DNA from: Bdellovibrionales bacterium
Lineage (GTDB): Bacteria; Bdellovibrionota; Bdellovibrionia; Bdellovibrionales; UBA1609
Direction: 5' to 3'
DNA: 32,000 nucleotides
Assembly: GCA_963692945.1 (NCBI GenBank)
Contig: OY843585.1
Location: 1,350,001-1,382,000, forward strand
This document shows, in pieces, positions 4,146-31,910 of the stretch (the first letter of the stretch is position 1; every line of letters begins with the position of its first letter). The notes under the pieces were generated by a model, which saw nothing but the letters and a program-made list of their open reading frames with translations, did not search any database and was not told the origin of the DNA. The position numbers were made by a program, and so were the translations under genes.

Positions 4146-4489
4146 CTTCCTTAAATTTTTTACTCCTTAGCTAGATAATAATAAAAACCACTCTTTTTCC
4201 AGAATTACAAAATAATATAACTCACTTTCCTTATCCTATTTTACATATCTTATTGTTTATCCCTACACAGTATTTCGGCCTATCAGATCTAAAAATTTGA
4301 CTGATTTTAGGGCTTTTTGACATAAAAATCCCTTTTTTTAAGCTTTTAACCGCCTGTTTTACTTTAAAAATAGACTTTATACACCATCCATTAGACCACT
4401 AAGAAACTATACAAAAAATAATTCTTGACAGATTTTACACCATAGCAAAAAAATAAACCTAAGAACCATTAAATTAAGGAGTGTAAAAA

Positions 4490-5098
4490 ATGGCTAAGAA
4501 AAAGGGGACTAAGAAGAAGTCCACTAAAAAGAAAGTAACTAAAAAGACAGTCACTAAAAAGAAAGGGACTAAGAAGAAGTCCACTAAAAAGAAAGTAACT
4601 AAAAAGAAGTCCACTAAGAAAAAGGGGACTAAGAAAGTAACTAAAAAGAAATCCACTAAGAAAAAGGGGACTAAGAAGAAAGCAACTAAAAAGAAGTCCA
4701 CTAAGAAAAAGGGGACTAAAAAGACAGTAACCAAAAAGAAAGGGACTAAGAAGAAAGCCACTCAAAAGACAGTAACCAAAAAGAAGTCCATTAAGAAAAC
4801 CGTTTCAAAAAAAGATTCCCCAAAAAAAGAAGCTCAATCCACTCCTGGTCTCATTGAAACGCCTCTAACAGAAAATCTCTCACCATCTAAAGTTTCACTG
4901 ACAAATCAAAAAGAAAAACTATCTGAAAATATGGATTTTATGGATGATGAGGGAACCTTTGAATCTCTTGGAAGTGAAAATGATTACTCTCCTGAAGATG
5001 ATGAGGAAAGTAGCAGTTTTGACAACCCGTTTGATGACGATCCATTTGATAGCCTAGAAGAAGAAAGCGATGATGAAGATGGAGACAATTTCTTTTGA
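4490..5098 (+). CDS. Lysine-repeat histone-H1-like (putative nucleoid-associated) protein with acidic C-terminal tail
   Basis: 202-aa ORF with strong SD (aaggag at 4476-4481). Roughly the first 105 aa are KKKxT pentapeptides. The last ~60 aa are D/E-rich (DNPFDDDPFDSLEEESDDEDGDNFF). A strong terminator follows. Confidence 0.7.
   Translation: MAKKKGTKKKSTKKKVTKKTVTKKKGTKKKSTKKKVTKKKSTKKKGTKKVTKKKSTKKKGTKKKATKKKSTKKKGTKKTVTKKKGTKKKATQKTVTKKKSIKKTVSKKDSPKKEAQSTPGLIETPLTENLSPSKVSLTNQKEKLSENMDFMDDEGTFESLGSENDYSPEDDEESSSFDNPFDDDPFDSLEEESDDEDGDNFF
4496..4798 (+). repeat. In-frame tandem 15-nt (aag-aar-aag-nnn-act) coding repeats, about 20 units
   Basis: Directly visible periodic aagaagaagtccact / aagaaaaaggggact / aaaaagaaagtaact units. 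They also generate the two antisense shadow ORFs at 4469-4765. Confidence 0.85.
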
Positions 5099-7267: not shown

Positions 7268-7843
7268 TTATTTACAAAGACACTTTATAGAATCATCTAT
7301 GTTTCTAAATAGAAAAGCCATATGATCTGTGATTTTTATATTGTCTGCTAAATTGTAATAAGAAGCATAACTTAATCTATAATTATTTTTTAATTTGCTA
7401 CAAGTTTCTTTTAAAGTGCTACCTCTAATAGAATCATAATTTATAGGATAAGAACTATTTAAAATAGAGTTTATCTCTAAAAGGTAAATGCCTAAGTTCA
7501 CACTTTTATCTCCATCTTTAACTTTTATATTATTGAAAGAATAAGCATTTCCATCATAGCTTTGTTTAGCAAATCTTTGTAACTTCACTAATTGACCAGT
7601 AAAATTTTTCACTTCTTGTAAATTGGGAGTCTTTTTACAAAACTCCTTCAACTCCACTAATTGTTGAGTGATATTTTCTGAAATATCTTTTACTTTTTGT
7701 TGTGTTAAGCCTGATACCTCTCCAACAAAAATCAAGTTGTCTTCCATTGGATCTACGGATGGAGTGTCTTTTTCAATAAGACCACAAGAACTTATAGTAA
7801 AAGTTAGAAAAATAAAAAGAATCTTAATAGCTATCATCTTCAA
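7268..7843 (-). CDS. Hypothetical lipoprotein
   Basis: 191 aa. Signal peptide ending in lipobox-like ISSC (MKMIAIKILFIFLTFTISSCG). No recognisable catalytic motifs. Confidence 0.6.
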   Translation of the reverse strand: MKMIAIKILFIFLTFTISSCGLIEKDTPSVDPMEDNLIFVGEVSGLTQQKVKDISENITQQLVELKEFCKKTPNLQEVKNFTGQLVKLQRFAKQSYDGNAYSFNNIKVKDGDKSVNLGIYLLEINSILNSSYPINYDSIRGSTLKETCSKLKNNYRLSYASYYNLADNIKITDHMAFLFRNIDDSIKCLCK

Positions 7844-8010
7844 TGTTATTTTATATAAAAAAATACAACCTTGATACTCTTAATAAAAAGAAATAACAAA
7901 ACAAGACCTTAGTTTAAGATAAAAATGCAACACCTAATAAATTAAAAAAAGCACAACAAAGTCTGTTCCTCTAAGATAAAAAATAGATCACTCATGGTTG
8001 AAATAAAATT

Positions 8011-10125
8011 CTAACCCGGACGGACAACAGAAGAAAGTTCTTGAAACTTTAATTTTGTAGATAAATGATTAGGATTTCCAAGATTTGGATCTTTAGAAAT
8101 AAGATCAAAAGCCGCTTTTTTAGCAAGAGATAAAATTTCCGAATCCCTAACTAAATGAGCCACCTTAAAACTTGGAAGACCAGATTGACGACGACCTAAA
8201 AACTCACCAGGCCCCCTTAATTCTAAATCTTTTTCTGCAATTTGAAAACCATCAGAAGTATTTGCCATTATATTGGCCCTCTCTTTGGCTTCTTTAGAAA
8301 ATCTCTCTCCTAAAACAATAACACAATAACTTTTTTCTGAACCACGTCCCACTCGCCCCCTAAGTTGATGCATTTGTGAAAGACCAAACCTTTCAGCATG
8401 CTCAATAACCATAACATTAGCATTAGGAACATCCACTCCCACTTCAATCACTGTTGTAGAAACTAAAACATCTATTTCTTTATTTCTAAATTGATTCATA
8501 ACAGAAGATTTTTCTTCGGCACCCATACGACCTGTTAAAATTCCCCACTTTACATCTTTATAATGACTTTTTAACTTTTCATACTGATCCATAGCATTTT
8601 TTAAATCTAACTTTTCACTCTCCTCTACAAGAGGGTAAACCACATAAGCTTGTCTTCCTTTTTGAACTTGATCCCTTAAAAAATTAAAAACCTCCAGTCG
8701 TTTATTATTAAAAGCTCTACGAGTCATAATAGGCTTTCTACCTATAGGAAGTTCATCAATGATAGAAACTTCTAAATCCCCGTAAAGAGCTAAAGAGAGT
8801 GTCCTTGGAATTGGCGTCGCTGTCATAACCAAAAAATGAGGATGATTCCCTTTTGCTTTAAGGAGAGCTCTTTGATGAGATCCAAAACGATGCTGTTCAT
8901 CTATAATCACAAGACCTAGATTATGAAATTGAATATTTTCTTGAATAAGAGCATGAGTCCCTATACACACAGAACAAAATCCAGAATTTAAAACAGCCCC
9001 AACACTTCTTTTCTCGCTGGCTTTCATTTTTCCTGTAAGTTTTTCCACTTTAACACCAAAGGGTTCTAAAAAAAGACGAGCCTTATTATAATGTTGTTCC
9101 GCTAAAATTTCTGTAGGAACCATAAAGGCTGTTTGATAACCCGCTTTTGCACAAGCCATAGCCGACATTAAAGCTATAACCGTCTTTCCACAACCCACAT
9201 CTCCTTGTATCAACCTGTGCATAGGATGATTGAACTGCAAATCTGTTATGATATGTTTTAAAACTTTTTGTTGAGCTGAAGTGAGCTGAAAAGGAAGTTT
9301 GTTTTCCAACTCTTTTAATGACTTAGTATCTATAGGAATTTGAGGGGATTCCCCTTCTTTCCAACCTTGTTTTTTTAAAGCCAAATAAAATTGAAGCTCA
9401 AAAAATTCATCAAAAATAATTCTCTTATGAAAGTCTGTTCTAGAATTAAAGTAATCCTCAACACGTTTTTGATCTGGAAAATGCAACCCTTTTAAAGCTT
9501 GAAATTTATCTATCAATTTGTATTTTTCTCTCAACCAAGATGGCAACCATTCTAAATCTTCTTCAGAGATTTCTAAATCTTGAAAAATAGTTTTCATAAT
9601 AGATCTTATTTTGTTTTGAGAAATGGATTCTATTTCCATATAAAGTGGCAAAAGAAGATCATCCTCTCTATTTTGATCGGATTCCTCTTTTAATGGAAAA
9701 ATTTCAGGATGATTAAAAGATAAATGATTACGATAAACTGAAGCCACTCCTCTAACTTCAACTCTACCGCCAACTAAAAGGGAGTTAAACCATCCTTTAT
9801 AAGGGTTACGAAAAAACTTACAAGAGATTTTCCCTGCTCCATCACCAATAACAATTTCATAAATTTTTTTATTACGAGCTCTTAAAGGTATAATATTTTT
9901 TTTTAAAATATCACCTACGACAATACTAGGACGACCCACCTGAATCTCTGATAAGTCAGACACTCTACGATTGTCTTGATACGCTCGGGGTAAAAAATAA
10001 ATAAAATCTTCCACCGTACTCAAAGAACGAGTTTTTAAGAAAGAGGCCAACTTCGGCCCCACACCTTTAACATATTGAAGAGATGTCTCTAATTTTAAAT
10101 GATTCTTTTTTACATCTGATGACAT
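8011..10125 (-). CDS. recG: ATP-dependent DNA helicase RecG
   Basis: 704 aa. Wedge/OB N-terminus, then helicase motifs GDVGCGKT, DEQHRFG, TATPIPRTL, QLRGRVGRG. Confidence 0.95.
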   Translation of the reverse strand: MSSDVKKNHLKLETSLQYVKGVGPKLASFLKTRSLSTVEDFIYFLPRAYQDNRRVSDLSEIQVGRPSIVVGDILKKNIIPLRARNKKIYEIVIGDGAGKISCKFFRNPYKGWFNSLLVGGRVEVRGVASVYRNHLSFNHPEIFPLKEESDQNREDDLLLPLYMEIESISQNKIRSIMKTIFQDLEISEEDLEWLPSWLREKYKLIDKFQALKGLHFPDQKRVEDYFNSRTDFHKRIIFDEFFELQFYLALKKQGWKEGESPQIPIDTKSLKELENKLPFQLTSAQQKVLKHIITDLQFNHPMHRLIQGDVGCGKTVIALMSAMACAKAGYQTAFMVPTEILAEQHYNKARLFLEPFGVKVEKLTGKMKASEKRSVGAVLNSGFCSVCIGTHALIQENIQFHNLGLVIIDEQHRFGSHQRALLKAKGNHPHFLVMTATPIPRTLSLALYGDLEVSIIDELPIGRKPIMTRRAFNNKRLEVFNFLRDQVQKGRQAYVVYPLVEESEKLDLKNAMDQYEKLKSHYKDVKWGILTGRMGAEEKSSVMNQFRNKEIDVLVSTTVIEVGVDVPNANVMVIEHAERFGLSQMHQLRGRVGRGSEKSYCVIVLGERFSKEAKERANIMANTSDGFQIAEKDLELRGPGEFLGRRQSGLPSFKVAHLVRDSEILSLAKKAAFDLISKDPNLGNPNHLSTKLKFQELSSVVRPG

Positions 10126-12753: not shown

Positions 12754-13326
12754 ATGAAATACCAAGTCACTTATGAATCAACGCCTAATCCTCAATCCTT
12801 GAAATTTATCCTCAACACTCCTATTTGCAATGAAACTTTAGAAATCACCGATAGAAATAAGGCCTCCCGATCTCCTTTAGCTGCAAAAATTCTTGGATTT
12901 CCTTGGGCAAAATCTGTTTTTTTAGGAGAAAATTTTATCACTATCACAAAAGAGGAATGGCTGGAATGGGATATGATCTCAGACCCCCTTGCTCAAATGA
13001 TAAAAGAGCATTTAGAAAAAGGAGGGGAAGTCCTTCTTGCAAAGCCAGAAAAAAAAGAAATGGATCACTCTATGAAAAATTCTACTACTGAAGAAAGTTC
13101 CGAAACAGTTAAAAAAATAAAAGAGATTTTAGAAAAAGAAATTCAACCAGCTGTGGCTATGGACGGAGGTTATATTGAATTTGTCTCTTATGAAAATAAG
13201 AAAGTCTATTTAAGCCTTCAAGGAGCTTGCTCAGGTTGTCCAAGTTCTAGCTACACTCTTAAAGAAGGAATTGAATCTCGTCTCAAACAAGACATTCCAG
13301 AAATAAGCGAAGTTGTTTCTGTATAA
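12754..13326 (+). CDS. Nfu/NifU-like Fe-S cluster assembly/carrier protein (Nfu_N + NifU C-terminal domain)
   Basis: 190 aa. N-terminal TPNPQSLKF motif. C-terminal GGYIEFVSY...LQGACSGCPSS CxxC motif. Confidence 0.85.
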   Translation: MKYQVTYESTPNPQSLKFILNTPICNETLEITDRNKASRSPLAAKILGFPWAKSVFLGENFITITKEEWLEWDMISDPLAQMIKEHLEKGGEVLLAKPEKKEMDHSMKNSTTEESSETVKKIKEILEKEIQPAVAMDGGYIEFVSYENKKVYLSLQGACSGCPSSSYTLKEGIESRLKQDIPEISEVVSV

Positions 13327-13468
13327 TCAAACAGTTCCTGAAATCTGTTTTGTTCTTAATTTCATAAGAATTGAATCTCGTCTCAAACAAGATATTCCAG
13401 AAATAAGCGAAGTTGTTTCTGTATAATCAAACCGTTCCTGAAATCTGTTTTGTTCTTAATTTCATAAG
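13269..13468 (+). repeat. Exact-length 100-bp tandem duplication (2 units, 2 mismatches) covering the nfu-like 3' end and its downstream hairpin
   Basis: Unit 1 is 13269-13368 and unit 2 is 13369-13468 (aattgaatctcgtctcaaacaaga[c/t]attccag...ttcataag). Differences are only c/t and a/c. Confidence 0.95.
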
Positions 13469-18213: not shown

Positions 18214-19902
18214 CTACCGATCCAGTTCTCCAGCGATAATATTCATACTTCCTAATAATGTCACAGCATCAGCCACTAAATGTCCACTCACTTTATGAGG
18301 ATAAGATTGATAAATAGGAAAACAAGGTGGACGGACTTTTAAACGATAAGGATTAGGACTTCCATCGCTGACAAGATAAAAACCAAGTTCCCCATTAGCT
18401 GCTTCCGTTGCCGAATAAATCTCTCCAGCTGGTGGACGACACCCATTGATAATTAACATAAAATGATTCATCAAACCTTCAATATTTCCATAAACCTCTT
18501 TTTTCTCTGGTAAGACAATGTCTTTGTCGCGAATGGTGTGATCTCCAGGTGGAACATTTTTACAAATCTGTTCAATAATACGAACAGACTGTCTCATTTC
18601 TTCCACACGAACAAGGTAACGGTCATAAGCATCACCCGTTGTTCCAACTGGGATTTCAAAATCTAAGTCATCATACATATAATAAGGTTCCACTTTTCGT
18701 AAATCTAAATTCAAGCCTGTAGAACGAAGACAAGGACCTGTGTATCCCCAAGAAATAGCCTCTTCTGTATCTATAGACCCAACACCTTGATTTCTTTCCA
18801 CCCAAATTTTATTTTTAGTTAACAAAGTATCTATTTCATCAATCCCCACTCGCATCTCTTTGCAAAATTGAAGAATATCTTTAAACCAATTTGGAGGAGG
18901 CTCATCAGCCATACCTCCCACCCGAGTCATAGAAACCGTCAATCTGGCTCCACAAAGTTTTTCAAAAATCGTATAAACTTTTTCCCGATAAGTGAAGGCA
19001 TGAAAAAATCCTGTTAAAGCTCCTAAATCAAAAGCCGCTGTCCCTATACAAACAATATGGTCAATGATACGAGAAAGTTCACAAAGAATGATTCTCATGG
19101 CTTGAGCTTTTGGTGGGATTTCAACACCTAAAATCTCTTCCACTGTTTTGCAATAACCCACATTATTCATAGCTGAAGAGCAATAGTTAAGGCGATCCGT
19201 ATAAGGTATCACTTGATTGTAAGGATGCACTTCTGACATTTTTTCAAAACAACGATGCAAATAACCTATCTCCACATTGGCTCTGTGAATTCGCTCCCCA
19301 TCCATAAGAGCCATAATTCTAAGAGTTCCATGAGTGGAAGGATGAGAAGGCCCTATATTAAGAGGTATTAAATCTTTACCTTCATCATTGGGAGCTGTTC
19401 CGTCCAATTCATTGTCCATATGAAACTCTACGGATTCAGAAAGATGTTGTTGCAAATCGGCTGGATAATCTTTACGCAAAGGATGCCCTTTAAATTGATG
19501 ATGCGTAAGTATCCTCCTCAAGTTAGGATGATCCTTAAATTTCACTCCATACATATCGTAAATTTCTCTTTCAAACCAATCCGCTGTTGGAAAAATAAAT
19601 TGTGCTGTAGGGACTTGCTCCTGTGTAGAAACAGACAGTTTGATTCTTAAACGAGAAATGGTTTTTGTAGAAAACAATTCATAAACAATTTCAAAACGTT
19701 TTTCTCTATTAGGATAATCCACTCCAGAGATACACATTAAAAAATCAAAGCGATTTTCTTTTTTAAAATGATACAAAACAGGTAAAAGCTGCTCCATCTT
19801 TAAAAGGAGCACAGCCGATTTAAAAGACTCTTGAAAAGAAAAAGTCTCTTTTGGAAATTTTTGTTTAAGGTCTCGTGTTAAATCTTCAATATAACTTTTC
19901 AT
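18214..19902 (-). CDS. nuoCD: NADH-quinone oxidoreductase fused subunit C/D
   Basis: 562 aa. NuoC-like WFEREIYDMYGVKF in the N-terminal third. NuoD-like GPSHPSTHGTLR and C-terminal IIAGELDR. Confidence 0.93.
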   Translation of the reverse strand: MKSYIEDLTRDLKQKFPKETFSFQESFKSAVLLLKMEQLLPVLYHFKKENRFDFLMCISGVDYPNREKRFEIVYELFSTKTISRLRIKLSVSTQEQVPTAQFIFPTADWFEREIYDMYGVKFKDHPNLRRILTHHQFKGHPLRKDYPADLQQHLSESVEFHMDNELDGTAPNDEGKDLIPLNIGPSHPSTHGTLRIMALMDGERIHRANVEIGYLHRCFEKMSEVHPYNQVIPYTDRLNYCSSAMNNVGYCKTVEEILGVEIPPKAQAMRIILCELSRIIDHIVCIGTAAFDLGALTGFFHAFTYREKVYTIFEKLCGARLTVSMTRVGGMADEPPPNWFKDILQFCKEMRVGIDEIDTLLTKNKIWVERNQGVGSIDTEEAISWGYTGPCLRSTGLNLDLRKVEPYYMYDDLDFEIPVGTTGDAYDRYLVRVEEMRQSVRIIEQICKNVPPGDHTIRDKDIVLPEKKEVYGNIEGLMNHFMLIINGCRPPAGEIYSATEAANGELGFYLVSDGSPNPYRLKVRPPCFPIYQSYPHKVSGHLVADAVTLLGSMNIIAGELDR

Positions 19903-19920
19903 CTTACACTTCTAAGTGAT

Positions 19921-20442
19921 CTAACGGTAGTGACCTGACTTCCATTGATCTTTATAAGGTCTTGGGATTTGCTCTGTTATCATTTTTTGAACCAACATCA
20001 CAGCGTCAATCACAGCCTCAGGGGTGGGAGGACAACCTGGAACATAAGCATCCACAGGTATCACCTTATCTACACCCTGTAAAACATTATAGGCTCTGTA
20101 AAAACCTCCAGAACTTGCACAAGCCCCCATAGCAATAACATACTTAGGTTCTATCATTTGTTCATAAACTCTAGAAATCACTGGTGCCATTTTTTCTACA
20201 ATGGTTCCAGCCACAATCATTAAATCCGATTGACGAGGTGAAAAACGAACCACTTCCGCTCCAAACCTTGCTAAATCATAGCGAGGCCCTAAAACAGACA
20301 TAATTTCAATACCGCAACAAGCTGTCCCGTAAGTCATGGGCCATAAAGAATTCCGACGACCCCAAGCCACAAACCGATCTAAGCGAGAGGTAAAAAAATA
20401 ACTCTCTTCTTGCTCTTGATACTTTATTTTTTGATTGGACAA
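19921..20442 (-). CDS. nuoB: NADH-quinone oxidoreductase subunit B
   Basis: 173 aa. [13 protein letters not shown] and PGCPP cluster-N2 motifs. Confidence 0.93.
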
Positions 20443-20520: not shown

Positions 20521-21222
20521 ATGAGTCAAGAAAACTTAAACAAAGCCATAGAACTCACAAAAAAAAATCAACCCAATGTTGCTGTTGTTTTTGACTTGGA
20601 CTCCACTTTATTTTGCATGAAATATAGGACACAAGCCATTATTAAAGATTATATTAAAAAAGACCATCCTCCTGCTTTGAAAAAACAACTTCAAAATATT
20701 AAAGTCACAGAAAAAGATTGGTCTGTCAGAGAGATTCTCAAAAGACATCGTTTAGACCAAGAAAGAGAACTTTTAATTCAGCTAGAAACTTTTTGGAGAG
20801 ATTCTTTTTTCAGAAATGACTACCTTCATCATGACCAGCCCTATAATAAAAGCATTCAGTTTGTGAAGCATTTGGATCAATTAGGTGGAACTGTTTTTTA
20901 TTTAACAGCGAGAAACAAACTTCATATGGAAGAGGGAACTTTAAAGACTCTTCAAAAATACGATTGCCCCTTAAAAACAAAAGAACATCTTATATTGAAA
21001 TCCAATAAAGAAGAACAGGATGCTGAATACAAAAAAGAAAAGTTACAAAAGTTGTCTCAGCAATTTCAAACCATTTTGTTTTTTGAGAATGAACCCGTGG
21101 TTTTAAATCTCATAGACCAAACTTTACAAAACATTCATTTGTTTTGGATAGACAGCACTCACTCCAGACAACAAGAACCTCCGAAAAAAGCCTTACCTAT
21201 TTCTATAGAATATGAGTTTTGA
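20521..21222 (+). CDS. HAD-superfamily hydrolase
   Basis: 233 aa. Motif I VVFDLDSTLF (DxDxT). Later YLTARN and FFENEP segments fit HAD motifs II to IV. Confidence 0.65.
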   Translation: MSQENLNKAIELTKKNQPNVAVVFDLDSTLFCMKYRTQAIIKDYIKKDHPPALKKQLQNIKVTEKDWSVREILKRHRLDQERELLIQLETFWRDSFFRNDYLHHDQPYNKSIQFVKHLDQLGGTVFYLTARNKLHMEEGTLKTLQKYDCPLKTKEHLILKSNKEEQDAEYKKEKLQKLSQQFQTILFFENEPVVLNLIDQTLQNIHLFWIDSTHSRQQEPPKKALPISIEYEF

Positions 21223-21345
21223 AATTCTCCTATTGGATTTTTGAAGTTCTCCTATTGGATTTTTGAAATTCTCCTATATGAGTTTTGAAATTCATCTCTT
21301 GGATTTTTGAAGTTCTCCTATATGAGTTTTGAAATTCCTATTGAT
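21126..21345 (+). repeat. Left direct repeat of the hip-like insert (last 97 bp of the HAD gene + 5 bp), continuing into an array of ~22-bp tandem units
   Basis: 21126-21227 equals 23174-23275 (102 bp, 1 mismatch). 21211-21345 is about 6 units of tat(a)tgagttttgaaattc / tattggatttttgaagttctcc. Confidence 0.9.
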
Positions 21346-21356
21346 AGTTTAAGTAA

Positions 21357-21761
21357 TCAATTTTTAGAGTTTTTAGAGTTATATTTTTTTTCATACTCTT
21401 TGTCAGTAGAAAATATATAGCTAGATAAAGGACTTTTTTCACTTAACCTGTTCAAAATTTCTATAAAATCTTGTTGTGGCAAAGATTTATAAATCTCACT
21501 TATATTGGGTCTATTTTTATCAGGCAATCTTGCACGAAAAAATGAGTGAAGAGATGTTGCTTCATGATCTTCCAATCCTTCTATTTTTCGATCACCTTTG
21601 GTATATTTAAAAATATATTTACCGGTTTTGTAAGTTAATTCTCCAACTAAAACAATAGATTTTCCATTAGTCGCTTCTTTATCATAAAAATATACAAATA
21701 AAGTCTTTTCAGAAGACTTATTTATAAATGAATTCAACAAATTATTTTTCTTTTCAGACAT
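21357..21761 (-). CDS. HipS-like protein (stand-alone HipA N-terminal subdomain homologue)
   Basis: 134 aa. VLVGELTYKTGKYIFKYT and SFFRARLPD resemble the E. coli HipA N-terminus (RVGELT...HTFKY...FFDNLLPD, recalled from memory). Its start is 1 nt after the stop of the upstream kinase gene. Confidence 0.6.
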   Translation of the reverse strand: MSEKKNNLLNSFINKSSEKTLFVYFYDKEATNGKSIVLVGELTYKTGKYIFKYTKGDRKIEGLEDHEATSLHSFFRARLPDKNRPNISEIYKSLPQQDFIEILNRLSEKSPLSSYIFSTDKEYEKKYNSKNSKN

Positions 21762-21762
21762 T

Positions 21763-23145
21763 TTATAAACCTAATATTTTATTCTTTCTTATCTTAAGTA
21801 CTTGACTAATTCTAACAATTCTGATGGGAGAAATCAAGTTTCTATATTTTTTTGTCAAATTTTCAATATCCAATAGATTTAACCTATGAACGAAATGCTT
21901 AAAAAGAACTGGATTGTTTTTTCTTATATACTGAACCACAGAAAAATGACTTTCATTAAGATTATTTTGAACAGTTAAAAGAGGTTTTGAATTTTCTACA
22001 TACTTTAATAGATTTTTTCTATCTTCATATTTAAAAATTAACTCATAAATATTCTCATTCCAAAACAAACCATGTCCTGTATCAAATAACGGTGTAAAAT
22101 ATATATCTTTAGTTTCATTTGATTGTTTTTTTAAAACTAATCCCCAATTCTCATGATGCCTATCTTGATGTCCCAATAAACAATCAACTAATAACATAAG
22201 ATGAAAATTATCCATATTTTTCTTTCTTTTCATTAAAGTAATAGATTGTTTTTTAAGATACTTTTCTATTGATTCTTCTATTTTTTCTATGGTATAGAAC
22301 TGTCTTTGCTCTTTTCTATGCTTTGGTGGAGTTTCCTCACCTGAATCTTGAAAAATTTCTAGTCCATGAATCAATCTATAATCATATTTTGAATTTTTAA
22401 AAAAAGTAAATATCGTAGAGCAGAGAGATATCCGATCTTTATATATTACTAACCAACATTTTGCAGCTTTTGTAAAGCAACTCGCAATATCAGTCATTAT
22501 AATTTCTGTAACAAGTTCTTTGAATCCATGATTATTCCTATTTTCTGTTTCTTTTGGAAATTTAATAAGAAACTTTGCATCTCTTGATCTAAGAATAAAC
22601 TTCTCAGCTTCCCCTAGAAGTGATTCACTTTCTTTATCTAAAAATTTTAAATGATTTTTATCTTTAATTTTTTTTAAAACATGAGAGCCTGCAAACTCTA
22701 AATATAACCATTTCTGATGGTTCCTTATAATTCTTACAGCTGATGATGAAATTTCATTCTGTTTAATTTTTTCTTTTATCTTTTTCTCTTTTTTTTCTAT
22801 AATTTTTAATTGTTCTTTACTACCTTCATTTTTTGAAACTTCTTCTCTTTCTATTTTTAGAGTTTTTAACTCTTTTTGAAATTTATCATTACAAACTAAA
22901 CAAGAGTAGTTAGGTATAGCAACTTTTTCTTGAAATTTATAATTAGCAATTGCATCTTTTATATGTGAAGACACATGATCTAAAATAAGCACATTTGTTT
23001 TTGTATGACGAACTCTTGCTTCACATCTATTACATTTTATATCTCTAATCATAATATATTTATATTGTATCATTAAGAATCTTTTTTTGTAATTTCTCTT
23101 GCAATAAACTTTCCATGTTTTGAATCCAGCAACAAAATGAGCCAT
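21763..23145 (-). CDS. HipA/HipT-like serine/threonine kinase core with an N-terminal CxxC...CxxC (zinc-ribbon-like) + coiled-coil extension
   Basis: 460 aa. LLGHQDRHHENWG...TPLFDTGHG matches the HipA_C catalytic pattern (HipA: GATDGHAKNFS...TPFYD, recalled from memory). Candidate Gly-rich loop EFAGSHVLKK near aa 150. Cys38/41 and Cys82/85. K/E-rich helix at aa 95-135. The true start may be an internal Met. Confidence 0.7.
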   Translation of the reverse strand: MAHFVAGFKTWKVYCKRNYKKRFLMIQYKYIMIRDIKCNRCEARVRHTKTNVLILDHVSSHIKDAIANYKFQEKVAIPNYSCLVCNDKFQKELKTLKIEREEVSKNEGSKEQLKIIEKKEKKIKEKIKQNEISSSAVRIIRNHQKWLYLEFAGSHVLKKIKDKNHLKFLDKESESLLGEAEKFILRSRDAKFLIKFPKETENRNNHGFKELVTEIIMTDIASCFTKAAKCWLVIYKDRISLCSTIFTFFKNSKYDYRLIHGLEIFQDSGEETPPKHRKEQRQFYTIEKIEESIEKYLKKQSITLMKRKKNMDNFHLMLLVDCLLGHQDRHHENWGLVLKKQSNETKDIYFTPLFDTGHGLFWNENIYELIFKYEDRKNLLKYVENSKPLLTVQNNLNESHFSVVQYIRKNNPVLFKHFVHRLNLLDIENLTKKYRNLISPIRIVRISQVLKIRKNKILGL

Positions 23146-23173: not shown

Positions 23174-23322
23174 ACAAAACATTCATTTGTTTTGGATAGA
23201 CAGCACTCACTCCAGACAACAAGAACCTCCAAAAAAAGCCTTACCTATTTCTATAGAATATGAGTTTTGAAATTCATCTCTTGGATTTTTGAAGTTCTCC
23301 TATATGAGTTTTGAAATTCTAC
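23174..23322 (+). repeat. Right direct repeat of the hip-like insert (orphan copy of the HAD 3' end + ~3 of the 22-bp units)
   Basis: See the left repeat. 23259-23319 also matches 21256-21327. Confidence 0.9.
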
Positions 23323-23426: not shown

Positions 23427-23921
23427 ATGATTATGCAAAAAATTATTTTTTTTCTAATTGTTATTTTGTTAGCACCACTCTCAACGGCTAGTGACAAACA
23501 AACATCAATGACTAATGAACTAACTTTAATTCGGCAAGCTCGTGTTCTTATATATATATCACCTATTACTTTTTCTAGCAGAACTGTTAATCTAAATTCA
23601 TGCTCCAATGAAGCTCCTGACATACATATCCAGCTTATCAAAACTCATAAAGGTTGGAAGAAAACATTAGCTAAGCTAGGTCTTGCACATAATTTTTTTC
23701 AGTTCAAACTCTCTGCCAACCCACAAACTGTAAAAGAAGTCGTTTGGGAATTTTCAAAAGAACAATATTTTGGAAGAGAAAATATTGAGGTAAGTGAAAA
23801 AAATGTATTGGTGAATGTATGGCAAAAATTTTCTCCAACTGTTTATCTCGTTTGTAACGATGATACATTACATACGATTGAGCTCTTGATTGACCCAGAA
23901 GAATACATTACATACGATTGA
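23427..23921 (+). CDS. Secreted protein of unknown function, paralogue 1
   Basis: 164 aa. Signal peptide MIMQKIIFFLIVILLAPLSTASD. Good SD. 87% identical to paralogue 2. Confidence 0.75.
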   Translation: MIMQKIIFFLIVILLAPLSTASDKQTSMTNELTLIRQARVLIYISPITFSSRTVNLNSCSNEAPDIHIQLIKTHKGWKKTLAKLGLAHNFFQFKLSANPQTVKEVVWEFSKEQYFGRENIEVSEKNVLVNVWQKFSPTVYLVCNDDTLHTIELLIDPEEYITYD

Positions 23922-24065: not shown

Positions 24066-24560
24066 ATGATTATCCAAAAAATTATTTTTTTTCTAATTGT
24101 TATTTTGTTAGCACCACTCTCAACGGCTAGTGACAAACAAACATCAATGACGAATGAACTAACTTTAATTCAGCAATCTCGCTATCTTATATATACATCA
24201 CTTATTACTTTTCCTAGAAGAACTGTTAATCTAAATTCATGCTCCAATGAAGCTCCTGACATACATATCCAGCTTATCAAAACCCATAAAGGTTGGAAGA
24301 AAGCATTATCTAAGGTAGGTCTTTTATATAATTTTTTTCAGTTCAAACTCTCTGCCAACCCACAAACTGTAAAAGAAGTCGTTTGGGAATTTTCAAAAGA
24401 ACAATATTTTGGAAGAGAAAATGTTGAGGTAAGTGAAAAAAATGTATTGGTGAATGTATGGCAAAAATTTTTTACAACTGTTTATCTCGTTTGTAACGAT
24501 GATACAAAACATACGATTGAGCTCTTGATTGACCCAGAAGAACATATTATACAACAATAG
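24066..24560 (+). CDS. Secreted protein of unknown function, paralogue 2
   Basis: 164 aa with the same signal peptide. Tandem duplicate of 23427-23921. Confidence 0.75.
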   Translation: MIIQKIIFFLIVILLAPLSTASDKQTSMTNELTLIQQSRYLIYTSLITFPRRTVNLNSCSNEAPDIHIQLIKTHKGWKKALSKVGLLYNFFQFKLSANPQTVKEVVWEFSKEQYFGRENVEVSEKNVLVNVWQKFFTTVYLVCNDDTKHTIELLIDPEEHIIQQ

Positions 24561-24841: not shown

Positions 24842-25168
24842 TTATTTCCTATCAATTTCATCTAAAAGAATTTCATTGATAACACTTTGATAACCTATCT
24901 TTCTTTTTTTAGCTTCTTTTTTAACAAAAGAGACAACTTGAGGATGAAGACGAATAGAGGTAGGTTTATATTTCTCAGCTTTTGGTTTTAAAGGCCTTCC
25001 TCTTAAAGGTCTTTTCTTTTTTAACTTCTTTTCTATAGCCCTATGAGCAGACATCACTTCCGCTTTTGTTATCTTCCTTGCATTTTTAAACAGGAAGATT
25101 TTGATTTTAGCCTTAGATTTTGCTTTCTTCATACGTCCTCCTTTCTTTTTGATTCGCTTTTCTGGCAC
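24842..25168 (-). CDS. brnA: BrnA-family (CopG/RHH-type) antitoxin
   Basis: 108 aa. LRGRPLKPKAEKYKPTSIRLHPQVVSFVKKEAKKRKIGYQSVINEILL fits the BrnA pattern (GRP...K..vSIRL...vl..fk....gYQt.iN). The track start is GTG at 25168; an ATG at 25132 is an alternative. Confidence 0.8.
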   Translation of the reverse strand: MPEKRIKKKGGRMKKAKSKAKIKIFLFKNARKITKAEVMSAHRAIEKKLKKKRPLRGRPLKPKAEKYKPTSIRLHPQVVSFVKKEAKKRKIGYQSVINEILLDEIDRK

Positions 25169-25434: not shown

Positions 25435-25545
25435 GATCATTCTGGCATTTATTTCATCAAGTAAAATCTTCAATCTTTTTTGCAATAAAAAATTACCAAT
25501 ATTTAGCATCCTGTTGAGTGGTTTTTAGAAGATCTCAAATGAGCC

Positions 25546-25722
25546 TCATGATTTTTTAAGTTTTTTTAGCCTAGTTAAAAAGGCTTTTTTTTTAAAGCAG
25601 AGGAACTCCTCACCTTTTTTTAAACTTCTTTGCTTGAATGTATTTCTTAGCTTTTGAAAAACTCTTGTAACTTTTTTGGTTAAATTTGAAAGCCCAAAGC
25701 CCAATGCTTTCGTTTTTTTAAG
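25546..25722 (+). repeat. Modular intergenic repeat, copy D (modules Y then X)
   Basis: Y (25558-25678) has hairpin agcct/aggct + T9 and near-palindrome gaggaactcctc + T7. X (25679-25719) has hairpin gaaagc/gctttc + T7, with loop ccaaagcccaat. It overlaps the dinD stop. Confidence 0.85.
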
Positions 25723-26806: not shown

Positions 26807-27056
26807 GCATTATTTTTGCAGTATTGTGCAGAGTGATCTTTTCGGAAATCACGAGAATTTGAATGAAATTGAGTGAAACTGCAGGAAAATCAAAGAGCCA
26901 ACTTTGTGGTTGATTTTTGTTGAATTTGAAAGCCCAATGCTTTCGTTTTTTTGTCACTCAAGAGGGGACAAATTCCTCATATTTTTTTAAGTTTTTTTAG
27001 CCTAGTTAAAAAGGCTTTTTTTTTAAAGTAGAGGAACTCCTCACCTTTTTTTAAAT
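26807..27056 (+). repeat. Modular intergenic repeat, copy A (W-X-spacer-Y)
   Basis: W at 26807-26918. X at 26919-26952 (hairpin gaaagc 26928-33 / gctttc 26939-44 + T7). 35-nt spacer. Y at 26988-27056 (agcct 26999-27003 / aggct 27012-16 + T8, then gaggaactcctc + T7). Confidence 0.9.
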
Positions 27057-28830: not shown

Positions 28831-29008
28831 GCATTATTTTTGCAGTGATTGTGCAGAGTGATTTTTTCGGAAATCACGAGAATTTGAATGAAATTGAAGG
28901 AAAACTAAAAGCTAATATCGTGGTTGATTTTTGTTGAATTTGAAAGCTCAAAACTCAAAGCCCAATGCCCAATGCCCAATGCCCAATGCCCAATGCTTTC
29001 GTTTTTTT
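28831..29008 (+). repeat. Modular intergenic repeat, copy B (W-X, X loop expanded)
   Basis: W at 28831-28932. X at 28933-29008, with gcccaat x5 (28960-28994) inside the hairpin loop, then gctttc + T7. Confidence 0.9.
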
Positions 29009-29072
29009 AAGTAGATACTTTGAAATATTGTTTTGGTTTACTTTAGCAAGATGTTATATTTATATATAATTT

Positions 29073-29517: not shown

Positions 29518-31284
29518 TCATAAGATCTCTTTTTTCTTTTTAATAAATTTTCTATAAAATAATGGATAAAATTTACGAAACTCTAAGGGAGTTTCCTTTT
29601 GATAGTTTGTAATATACTTATCATGTAATCGATTCCAAAATTCCCTGTCTGAATTTTTTATAAAACATAAATATCCTTGGATATGTCGAATTTTCTGCTG
29701 ATGCTTGTTTTTTTCATAATCTCTGAGAAGTTTTTTTATATAATTTTTTCTACTTCTTCCTAAAGATATTTTTCCTTCTGGAGTCAGATACAAGCCAGTT
29801 ATTTTTCTTTGACCTTTTTTTGACATATGAAAAGTTTTTTTGTTATTGATTTTTAAATTCAAAGGATAAGGTATTTCTTTTAAAAGATCTTTCACTTTTT
29901 GTTCTAAGACATTTAATTGGTTAGATTTAGAATATGAAAACGTAAGATCATCTCCATATCTTGAATAAGTTATACCTAAATTTTCACTATATTTGAATAT
30001 ATTTTCATCGAAGGAATAAAGAAGAATATTTGATATAACTGGAGAAGTACTAGATCCTATAGGTAGAGGATAATCTTCATTTTTCAAAGAATTATCTTTG
30101 AAAACTATATCACAAATCAACTTTTTATATCCTTTAAAATGATTTTTACTTTCTAAATATTTTAAGAAGTCTGATCTTTTTATAGATGAAAAAAAATTCT
30201 TAAAATCTAATTTTAAAAGAAACTGATTTTTTTGATGTCGTTCTATATTTCTTCTTATACTGTTTTTTTTGATATAAGCTGTTGCAGATGTATGAACAGG
30301 AAAAATATGGTTACAATCTAATATTCTTGTTTTTAATATTTTTTGTAAACTTTTTAGATTCTCATCTGGTTCTTTATAATGCTCTCTTTGAGAATATGAA
30401 AAGCAGTCTGGACTTATAAAATTTTTGATATATTTTAATAGGATTAAATCACTTTCTTCCTCTCTTTCTGTTTGAATAATAGTATGATGTAAAATACTCA
30501 TTTTATTTAATATAGAGCTATCACTTCTTATCAAGCTAAGGTATTTTGTTTGATTGAAATCAGTTTCTTCAACTATAAATTTAAAAGCTTTCAGCATTTT
30601 TAGATGGTTATCTAATTTATCTATGTATTTAGTTAGTTTAGTATCTTTTTTAACCTCTTGATATATTTCCTCTTTAGTTTTCCATTCACATAAAATCCCT
30701 ATAAGAAAAAAATATAGAGATGTTAAATTATTTGTATTTATTTCTATGTTATAATCTGCTTTATTTCTAAAATTAAAAATTTCTTTAAAAACTTTTTCTT
30801 TATGGGATTCATTGCTTTGATCATAGTAAATAATTCTTTCTTTTTCTTTAAGAAATATATCTTCTAATATTGCTTTTTTTATAAATGAGTTTTTTTTACA
30901 ATGTTTTTCATCTACTATAATAAGTAATTTCTTTTTTAACTTAGGATTGCAGAAAAAAGCTCCAGTTTCCACCAGTGCTCCATGACCTTCTAAAAAAATG
31001 GGAATAACTGAAGATAACTCTGCAATTTCCATCTCAAATTCAAATAAGTTATTATATCCAGCATTTTCTTCTTTTAAACATTTTTCCCATAAAGTTTCAA
31101 TTTGCTCTGCTAGGATAATTCTTTTGTCAGAAAAAATATTCTCATCGTCTTTGTTGGTAATGAAAACATCTTTATATGTAGATTTTACATGCTTAAGAAA
31201 TGCATTTCTCATAGAATCTGAACAATTAGAACCGCATAAAAATGCAGTATTAGGCAATCTACCTAAGATATGTTTTTTATTCAT
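29518..31284 (-). CDS. Retron-type reverse transcriptase (C-terminal ~300 aa) fused to a ~290-aa N-terminal Rossmann-like + wHTH-like region
   Basis: 588 aa. RT motifs: SIRRNIERH (retron NAxxH-like), LLKLDFKNFFSSI (motif 1/2), LPIGSSTSPVISNILL (motif 3/4), YSRYGDDLTFS (YxDD), QRKITGLYLTPEGKISLGR (retron VTG-like). The N-terminus has AFLCGSN and PIFLEGHGALVETGAF. Confidence 0.85.
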   Translation of the reverse strand: MNKKHILGRLPNTAFLCGSNCSDSMRNAFLKHVKSTYKDVFITNKDDENIFSDKRIILAEQIETLWEKCLKEENAGYNNLFEFEMEIAELSSVIPIFLEGHGALVETGAFFCNPKLKKKLLIIVDEKHCKKNSFIKKAILEDIFLKEKERIIYYDQSNESHKEKVFKEIFNFRNKADYNIEINTNNLTSLYFFLIGILCEWKTKEEIYQEVKKDTKLTKYIDKLDNHLKMLKAFKFIVEETDFNQTKYLSLIRSDSSILNKMSILHHTIIQTEREEESDLILLKYIKNFISPDCFSYSQREHYKEPDENLKSLQKILKTRILDCNHIFPVHTSATAYIKKNSIRRNIERHQKNQFLLKLDFKNFFSSIKRSDFLKYLESKNHFKGYKKLICDIVFKDNSLKNEDYPLPIGSSTSPVISNILLYSFDENIFKYSENLGITYSRYGDDLTFSYSKSNQLNVLEQKVKDLLKEIPYPLNLKINNKKTFHMSKKGQRKITGLYLTPEGKISLGRSRKNYIKKLLRDYEKNKHQQKIRHIQGYLCFIKNSDREFWNRLHDKYITNYQKETPLEFRKFYPLFYRKFIKKKKEIL

Positions 31285-31634: not shown

Positions 31635-31910
31635 GCGTTAATTTTTGCAGTGATTGTGCAGTGATTAGACAGTGATTTTTTCGGAAATCACGAGATTTTG
31701 AATGAAATTGAAGGAAACTGGAGGAAAATCAAAGAGCCAGCTTTGTGGCTGGTTTTGTTGAATTTGAAAGCCCAATGCTTTCGTTTTTTTAAGTTTTTTT
31801 AGGCTAGTTAAAAAGGCTTTTTTTTAAAGCAGAGGAACTCCTCTCTATTTTTAAACTTCTTTGCTTGGATATATTTTTTAGCTTTTAAAAAAGTTATAAA
31901 AGTTTTTCAA
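31635..31910 (+). repeat. Modular intergenic repeat, copy C (W-X-Y)
   Basis: W at 31635-31756 (three cagtgatt boxes). X at 31757-31790 (gaaagc 31766-71 / gctttc 31777-82 + T7). Y at 31791 to about 31910; its first hairpin is broken by aggct in place of agcct. Confidence 0.9.

Follow-up and report, generated by a model that had tools for sequence, protein, structure and literature searches.

The region analysed here, hereafter the window, is a 32,000-nucleotide (nt) stretch of the Bdellovibrionales bacterium contig OY843585.1 (assembly GCA_963692945.1, positions 1,350,001 to 1,382,000), and it contains a two-gene module made up of a HipA-type protein kinase and a small protein related to the antitoxin HipS (Table 1). 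Both genes lie on the minus strand, exactly where an initial annotation, made from the nucleotide sequence alone, had placed open reading frames (ORFs) of 460 and 134 amino acids (aa). Their junction reads TAA-a-ATG, with a single base between the two genes, which bears out the tight linkage described in that annotation and suggests that the kinase and HipS-like genes are translationally coupled. The segment occupied by the pair has a GC content of 25-27%, the lowest in the right half of the window, and a scan of promoter and terminator signals found no enrichment over shuffled sequences. The annotated first methionine of the kinase is probably not the true start, with M25 (ATG at 23073) or M32 (ATG at 23052) being likelier, because the homologues start 6-12 residues ahead of the first cysteine and because residues 1-34 have a predicted local distance difference test score (pLDDT) below 50.

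The larger gene encodes a kinase core of the HipA superfamily

The larger product is the core of a HipA-superfamily Ser/Thr kinase devoid of N-subdomain 1, as the initial annotation had concluded from its catalytic signature and glycine-rich loop. These motifs are invariant in the family alignment, namely the glycine-rich loop S175-LLGEAxK182, the catalytic D328-R-H-H-E-N333 and the Mg-binding F354-D355-T-G. The Pfam model HipA_C matches all seven members of the kinase family (best E=2e-6), whereas the window kinase taken alone (E=4.5e-5, 23.6 bits) stays under the curated cut-off of 30.5. A stronger match is obtained with the PADLOC profile PDC-M03A (E=1.7e-25), which aligns residues 171-452 with profile positions 12-267 of 280. 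When the PDB was searched with the family profile, the only significant solved relative was CtkA of Helicobacter pylori (E=3e-8), whose GNFDRHNGNW and FDCG segments line up with the catalytic and Mg-binding motifs of the kinase. CtkA is also the best PDB fold match by Foldseek (E=4e-9, template-modelling (TM) score 0.77 on target length) of the AlphaFold (AF2) model of the kinase (pLDDT 76.5, predicted TM score (pTM) 0.71), and the next matches are HipA and HipT from several species. No match to Couple_hipA, the Pfam model for N-subdomain 1, was found within the window kinase or its family members.

The small protein is a free HipS homologue

The small protein is a free homologue of HipS, that is, of N-subdomain 1 of HipA, as had been proposed when the missing subdomain was first recognised in a separate 134-aa product. 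Couple_hipA matches five of the seven members of the small-protein family (best E=8.1e-5), and the window protein alone scores E=0.15 and 13 bits, under the cut-off of 22.5. The top PDB match of the family profile is HipS of the E. coli HipBST system (7ab3_B, E=0.029), in an alignment that runs through the VGxL…FxY and FF…P…R motifs. Structure prediction of the protein by itself gave the same answer: the AlphaFold model (pLDDT 74, pTM 0.70) has as its top three PDB folds the HipS chains 7vkb_B, 7ab3_E and 8ezr_A (TM 0.67-0.68 on target, probability 1.00) and as its fourth the isolated N-terminal domain of HipA (7czo), with later matches being noise. Furthermore, an hhalign comparison of the small-protein family with the partner protein of the related locus L008 returned a probability of 96.9% (E=1.6e-10), and this partner clears the Couple_hipA cut-off (36.4 bits vs 22.5).

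Because the single-sequence Pfam scores of both proteins lie under the cut-offs, their assignments rest on family-level matches, fold matches and the transitive profile match; the profile check first envisaged for HipA_C and Couple_hipA thus succeeds for the families and falls short for the window proteins on their own. An NCBIfam scan of the single sequences left both without a match. PADLOC profile PDC-M03B matches the small protein (E=7.9e-8) over profile positions 4-100 of 245, i.e. over its HipS-like half only, and scans with Pfam and PADLOC found no HIRAN domain in the window protein. A homologue search with the small protein as a single sequence recovered just itself, and an alignment query was needed to find relatives. 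A match to DUF7774, under threshold and in one of seven members, was rejected as compositional.

Kinase-first gene order and relation to known Hip systems

Only six relatives of the kinase exceed 35% identity (37-48%) among 5.8 billion clustered proteins, and 1.84 billion representatives, searched exhaustively with a profile, yielded 1,468 relatives at E<=1e-3, with 334 at E<=1e-10. No close relative was found in GTDB species representatives, JGI metagenome contigs or IMG/VR contigs, where the matches cover the kinase core only, with identities of at most 34% over long segments and of 41-44% on short stretches around the catalytic motif. The pairing itself is conserved, with a small gene at the 3' end of the kinase gene in nine of nine related loci: genes of 117-129 aa abut or overlap the kinase in L002-L007, L227 and L228, and in L001 a 70-aa fragment is cut by the contig end. 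The encoded small proteins are 33-49% identical to that of the window.

For a wider survey of gene order, ORFs were called in all fetched loci and the neighbours of 161 unique full-length kinases were scored with the window small-protein family profile. A HipS-like gene lies downstream of the kinase in 111 of them and upstream in none; kinase-first is therefore the norm in the surveyed clade, and the survey that the initial annotation had called for overturns its own description of the order as inverted. The downstream partners comprise 103 long proteins (at least 200 aa), seven short ones and one of intermediate length; the short ones are Couple_hipA proteins by Pfam (three of four above the cut-off) and the long ones contain HIRAN. 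A further 41 kinases have no detectable HipS-like match, many of them being followed by an ORF of ~243 aa, and nine lie at contig ends.

A bootstrapped neighbour-joining tree was calculated from 287 aligned columns; it is unrooted, includes no reference HipJ sequences and has 12% of its pairwise distances saturated. The five long kinases with zinc/coiled-coil modules form a clade (200/200 replicates), and together with the kinases of L005, L227 and L228 they constitute a family (196/200). Distant kinases with short HipS-like partners form a clade as well (183/200), and the window family and the short-partnered kinases are together separated from all 45 sampled HipN-partnered kinases (200/200).

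This organisation has been described before. Gerdes, Baerentsen and Brodersen (2021) used gene organisation to distinguish ten families of HipA homologues, and two families of clade XI, both without a helix-turn-helix (HTH) gene, begin with the kinase: in hipJS a short core kinase is followed by a HipS-like putative antitoxin, and in hipIN the kinase is followed by HipN, a HipS-like protein with HIRAN (PMC8262856). The kinase followed by a HipS-like gene without HipB, which the initial annotation did not recognise as any known arrangement, is the published hipJS arrangement; a comparison with existing classifications accordingly finds it already defined, with hipIN and the PADLOC system PDC-M03 as related forms. 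The PADLOC PDC systems are untested candidates collected by 'guilt-by-embedding' in BREX, DISARM and Type I restriction-modification (R-M) loci (bioRxiv 10.1101/2024.01.29.577857). PDC-M03 appears to correspond to hipIN, because its B profile is ~245 aa long and related loci encode HipS-HIRAN partners.

By its architecture and by the above tree of surveyed loci, the window pair is best classed as a hipJS-type module related to hipIN/PDC-M03. In common with hipJS it has a core kinase without N-subdomain 1, a single-domain HipS-like gene directly downstream, no HTH or HipB gene and a serine beside the glycine-rich loop. Its placement is indicated indirectly, by the grouping of its kinase with the short-HipS-partnered kinases (200/200). 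It differs in the size of the kinase, which is 279-321 aa in HipJ and 430-460 aa in the window owing to an N-terminal extension of ~100 aa. With hipIN/PDC-M03 it shares the gene order, the kinase core and the N-terminal half of the partner, as seen in the matches to PDC-M03A and PDC-M03B; however, the HIRAN half of the partner is absent, the kinases fall in a separate clade, and the PDC-M03 kinase profiles leave residues 1-170 of the window kinase uncovered. HipBST of E. coli O127 and Legionella pneumophila is likewise a split HipA, consisting of a kinase core and a free N-subdomain-1 homologue, and it is its HipS chains that the window small protein resembles most closely in structure. Unlike the two kinase-first genes of the window, HipBST is a tricistronic hipB-hipS-hipT operon with an HTH protein, HipB; moreover, the window kinase is structurally nearer to CtkA than to HipT, and Trp65 and Glu63 of HipS are not kept.

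Distant relatives of the kinase are also carried by 59 viral or proviral contigs (IMG/VR loci L168-L226). Among the PHROGs of unassigned function phrog_8728 and phrog_8026, there are matches to the kinase core (E=3.8e-14) and to the HipS-like half of a ~246-aa profile (E=8.3e-5). The lengths of these profiles suggest that phages or prophages carry hipIN-type pairs.

A four-cysteine and helical-hairpin extension of the kinase

Ahead of the kinase core the window protein carries a four-cysteine module, a hairpin rich in lysine and glutamate (K/E) and a set of pre-kinase helices. Residues C38, C41, C83 and C86 are conserved without exception in the six homologues with this region, whose overall identity is 43-48%. 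The four cysteines and the K/E-rich coiled coil of the initial annotation are thereby confirmed, with a spacing of CxxC-N41-CxxC instead of the N40 given there. As modelled, the module has strands at residues 46-53 and 74-81 and helices at 54-57 and 60-65, and the second CxxC opens a long helix; this fold looks nearer to a treble clef than to a classic zinc ribbon, and the four cysteines are predicted to bind zinc. The K/E-rich segment, which varies from 39 to 53 aa among the homologues, forms helices 83-105 and 110-128, with block-mean pLDDT values of 75-93 over residues 81-130 of the AF2 model. The module has no counterpart in Pfam, NCBIfam or the PDB sequence families, and the Pfam zinc-finger families in particular gave no match. 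Matches of Cap4_nuclease, MRP-S26 and Acetate_kinase to the K/E-rich segment, each under threshold and in one of seven members, were set aside as compositional.

Within the pre-kinase helices the seven members of the close family all have W146, Y148, E150, G153, H155 and K158, and in a ten-sequence alignment with sister kinases only E150 and G153 stay nearly invariant. In the profile search the sisters P0017, P0019 and P0020 match from profile positions 99-103 onwards, and these starts, along with the alignment, indicate that helices 134-159 are common to sisters without the expanded module. The extra N-terminus, first put at ~135 aa, is thus real as a module, with the part actually added amounting to ~100 aa (residues ~32-130).

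Among the sisters, P0017, P0020 and P0023 have a compact CxxC-N27-CxxC just ahead of the pre-kinase helices, and P0007, P0018 and P0019 have neither cysteine form. A genuine cysteine-rich N-terminal extension is lacking from all 161 distant kinases of the survey; in the two cases flagged for one, the ORF seems to have been called too long, in GC-rich DNA. Of the 150 best matches listed for the profile search, just two clusters reach across the first ~57 profile positions. The expanded form, with CxxC-N41-CxxC and K/E hairpin, is carried by just six known proteins, and beyond these and the three sisters with the compact form no relative surveyed or listed has either. A literature search found no description of a zinc-finger-tagged Hip kinase. 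The four-cysteine and helical-hairpin extension (~100 aa) is thus a new part of the module, confined to a very small clade, and we take it to be a putative regulatory add-on for sensing, oligomerisation or binding of nucleic acids or proteins.

One specific role for the cysteine module would be that of a built-in DNA-binding autorepressor that replaces HipB, as has been proposed for the HTH at the N-terminus of HipH/YjjJ. HipH/YjjJ offers a precedent for a nucleic-acid-binding domain fused to the N-terminus of a Hip kinase (PMC8262856): it too has an extension of ~100 aa, proposed to act in nucleic-acid binding or cis regulation, and no HipB gene, although its extension is an HTH and the gene is monocistronic, lacks a HipS partner and belongs to clade X. 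The strict conservation of the four cysteines, the compact form in sister kinases and the lack of any accompanying HTH gene are in line with such a role; as the initial annotation stated, there is no HTH or HipB gene, none being detected in the upstream ORFs of the window and of five homologue loci, where the upstream neighbours are unrelated and differ from locus to locus. Conversely, the module matches no DNA-binding family, the charge of its zinc part is not consistently basic (isoelectric points of 6.3-9.3 across homologues), and a search of the kinase upstream regions of seven loci found no operator-like repeats in common. In the window, the 22-nt repeats ahead of the kinase form part of a flanking duplication and are commoner downstream of the pair, and hipJS modules generally, as well as the family members P0007 and P0019, do without such a domain. 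We regard an autorepressor function as rather improbable, and a replacement of HipB by the zinc module stays doubtful on computed evidence that speaks neither for it nor decisively against it.

Proposed mode of action

In light of the architecture and by analogy with HipBST, we consider it fairly probable that the pair is a two-gene hipJS-type toxin-antitoxin or abortive-infection module in which the HipS-like protein restrains the kinase. The small protein would dock on the N-lobe of the kinase and keep it inactive, as in HipBST. Its loss or displacement, e.g. upon phage infection or loss of the element, would free the kinase, which could then phosphorylate an essential host protein, such as a translation factor; translation would stop, and the resulting growth arrest would give a toxin-antitoxin or abortive-infection outcome. 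The targets of characterised Hip kinases are aminoacyl-tRNA synthetases. With its catalytic residues intact, the window kinase is predicted to be active and to inhibit growth, and the small gene at the kinase 3' end in every related locus shows that the pairing is conserved. A two-gene module of a HipA-like protein and DUF3037 has been reported as a stand-alone phage defence (PMC12548924), and Hip-type kinases therefore do serve in defence. PADLOC PDC-M66, with a HipA-like protein and DUF3037 in an architecture like that of the validated DS-6, resembles the window pair as a two-gene HipA-like kinase module and differs in that the partner is DUF3037 instead of a HipS-like protein.

Several points weigh against this proposal. 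The hipJS label depends on architecture and on a tree of surveyed loci in which reference HipJ sequences are absent. The table of experimental evidence for the families (Table 1 of PMC8262856) has the entry 'None' for clade XI, hipJS and hipIN being predicted only, and no subsequent experiments on either turned up in our literature search. Analogy is the basis for the target of the kinase, its toxicity and any defence phenotype. Moreover, in E. coli HipS it is Trp65 and Glu63 that neutralise HipT, with Trp65 wedging into the pocket of the kinase glycine-rich loop (PMC10627512); the equivalent residues here are N83 and D81, both positions vary within the family, and at that of N83 the homologues have Y, D, Y, E, G or K. 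The inhibitory mechanism is for this reason not simply transferable from HipBST. N-subdomain 1 is, in addition, a part of active HipA, and the small protein might accordingly serve as a subunit and not as an inhibitor.

The last two points lead to the chief alternative, a split kinase in which the HipS-like protein is an obligate subunit that completes the enzyme and control is exerted elsewhere, by the cysteine/hairpin module or by autophosphorylation of S175. In keeping with it, the inhibitory residues of HipS are not conserved, the small-protein family has an invariant P80 and R84 in its version of the general 'PxxxR' motif of Couple_hipA, an invariant serine stands at the start of the glycine-rich loop, and the 1-nt gap is compatible with translational coupling and near-equimolar synthesis of the two proteins. 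On the other hand, some HipS orthologues do without Trp65 (PMC10627512), so that its absence here carries no decisive weight, and in the only tested split systems, HipBST of E. coli and Legionella, free HipS is the antitoxin (PMC10627512, PMC9325769). We judge a split kinase of this kind to be unlikely, though with an appreciable chance of being correct, and retain restraint of the kinase by the HipS-like protein as the preferred interpretation. An elaboration of the latter, to which we give a low probability, would have the N-terminus serve as a dedicated switch, by sensing or by oligomerisation, with which the kinase directly detects an infection cue, such as a phage protein or nucleic acid, with HipS as a safety catch.

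Flanking repeats and the defence neighbourhood

The pair is bracketed by two direct repeats of 147 nt, 95% identical and spaced by 2048 bp, of which the left copy belongs to the intact 3' end of a HAD-phosphatase gene. A 22-nt unit with the core TTTTGAARTTCTCCTAT recurs on both sides, with six matches vs 0.18 expected by chance. Since the homologue loci have no flanking direct repeats comparable to the 147-nt pair, the duplication is specific to the window; it suggests that the 2-kb segment was acquired by recombination next to the HAD gene. No recombinase was found within the bracketed segment. At the homologue locus L002 unrelated 28-nt tandem arrays (7823-8045 and 8882-9013) come right after the small gene, and such short arrays between genes may be characteristic of the lineage.

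Table 1. Features of the window that bear on the kinase/HipS-like pair and its surroundings
Feature	Position	Strand	Remarks
Kinase ORF	21763..23145	-	460 codons as longest ORF
HipS-like small gene	21357..21761	-	134 aa; begins 1 nt past kinase stop codon
Four-Cys putative zinc-finger module, residues 32-88 (C38/C41, C83/C86)	22882..23052	-	Cys conservation; model
K/E-rich helical hairpin ('coiled coil'), residues 83-128	22762..22899	-	AF2 model
Pre-kinase helices, residues 134-159, consensus HQKWxYxExxGxHxxKK	22669..22746	-	Conserved in family
HipA-type kinase core, residues ~165-460	21766..22653	-	Motifs invariant in family and sister alignments
Gly-rich loop S175-K182	22600-22623	-	Coordinates read from sequence
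Catalytic D328-N333	22147-22164	-	Coordinates read from sequence
Mg-binding D355	22081-22083	-	Coordinates read from sequence
147-nt direct repeat, left copy	21126..21272	.	Family D5; last 97 nt of HAD-phosphatase gene and first 22-nt repeat units
147-nt direct repeat, right copy	23174..23320	.	Family D5; duplicated HAD-gene 3' end; 29 nt upstream of longest kinase ORF
22-nt tandem repeat array, core TTTTGAARTTCTCCTAT	21210..21337	.	Family D3; between HAD gene and small gene
Shorter 22-nt repeat set, core TTTTGAARTTCTCCTAT	23258-23319	.	Upstream of kinase
HAD phosphatase gene	20521-21222	+	Left neighbour
164-aa gene, two tandem copies	23427-23921, 24066-24560	+	639-nt period, 300 nt at 95% identity
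BrnA-family antitoxin	24842-25168	-	Pfam E=1e-8
588-aa ORF, NDT_II-A (E=9e-37, residues 9-260) and RT_II-A (E=6.6e-76, residues 304-561)	29518-31284	-	PADLOC

The genes to the right place the pair in a defence island, and the initial picture of a repeat-flanked insert in a defence neighbourhood is upheld by the 147-nt repeats and by the nearby genes for BrnA, a Bro-N protein and a retron-type reverse transcriptase (RT). The product of the duplicated 164-aa gene has a hydrophobic N-terminus resembling a signal peptide and matches nothing in Pfam or PADLOC. Beside the BrnA-family gene no BrnT toxin ORF of at least 50 aa is obvious, and BrnA may be an orphan antitoxin. Further on there are a Bro-N/PDC-S13 protein, a 434-aa protein with weak similarity to PDC-M09B, and the 588-aa ORF, which looks like a fused type II-A retron, the NDT part (a nucleoside-deoxyribosyltransferase-like effector domain) and the RT part being modelled by PADLOC as two proteins; an Rfam scan of 20-32 kb gave no non-coding RNA at gathering thresholds. 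To the left of the pair are, besides the HAD phosphatase gene, core genes that, going by their ORF translations, we take to encode NuoB and a fused NuoCD (18214-20442). In related genomes the module has Type I R-M genes as neighbours at L001 and L003.

This context also bears on a third explanation, namely that the kinase is a host-directed effector like H. pylori CtkA or Legionella HipT as first described, with the small protein as its chaperone or immunity factor. CtkA (JHP940; 3AKJ/3AKK/3AKL) is the closest solved structure both by profile and by fold, with GNxDRHxxNW and FDxG in common; the source genome is small (a 1.56-Mb contig) and AT-rich (~31% GC), and Sel1-repeat proteins occur on related contigs. 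CtkA is, however, a 325-aa chain whose match extends over no more of the query than its kinase core (profile positions 283-436), and according to its PDB title it is a proinflammatory kinase and not a toxin of a toxin-antitoxin pair. No secretion signal or secretion-system context was seen for the window module, which instead lies among defence and toxin-antitoxin genes here and adjoins Type I R-M genes elsewhere, and its conserved HipS partner suits the logic of a toxin-antitoxin system. Legionella HipT itself is now treated as a toxin of this kind (PMC9325769). We consider an effector role very improbable and again prefer a toxin-antitoxin or abortive-infection function, with the kinase restrained by HipS.

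Other repeats were noted elsewhere in the window. An intergenic element of ~150-220 nt recurs between defence-type genes at 25544-25722, 26832-27055, 28857-29011 and 31671-31856 (families D4, D6, D9 and D12); an AGCCT…AGGCT hairpin with a T-run behind it is part of the element, and the region of 25-32 kb looks like a cassette array. About 18 overlapping repeats with a period of 15 nt (4425-4844) lie mostly within a plus-strand ORF (4490-5098) and imply a pentapeptide-periodic protein. At 13268-13467 a perfect-register tandem duplication of 100 nt with 98% identity includes the 3' end of a NifU/Nfu-like gene (12754-13326), the second case of a duplicated gene 3' end in the window.

Implications

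The window pair leaves the current picture of Hip kinases unchanged. Predicted hipJS and hipIN modules are listed as phage-defence candidates, and the pair provides a compact and well-delimited test case for them, with an extra conserved domain and three experimental handles in the form of kinase-dead, Cys-to-Ser and N-terminal-deletion variants. Should the N-terminus prove to be a sensor, the module would be a self-contained sensor-kinase abortive-infection system, and the wiring of a Hip kinase without a DNA-binding antitoxin would be new. Experiments with such variants could bear on whether free HipS is always an antitoxin, on how Hip kinases are controlled without HipB, and on what the zinc module senses or binds.

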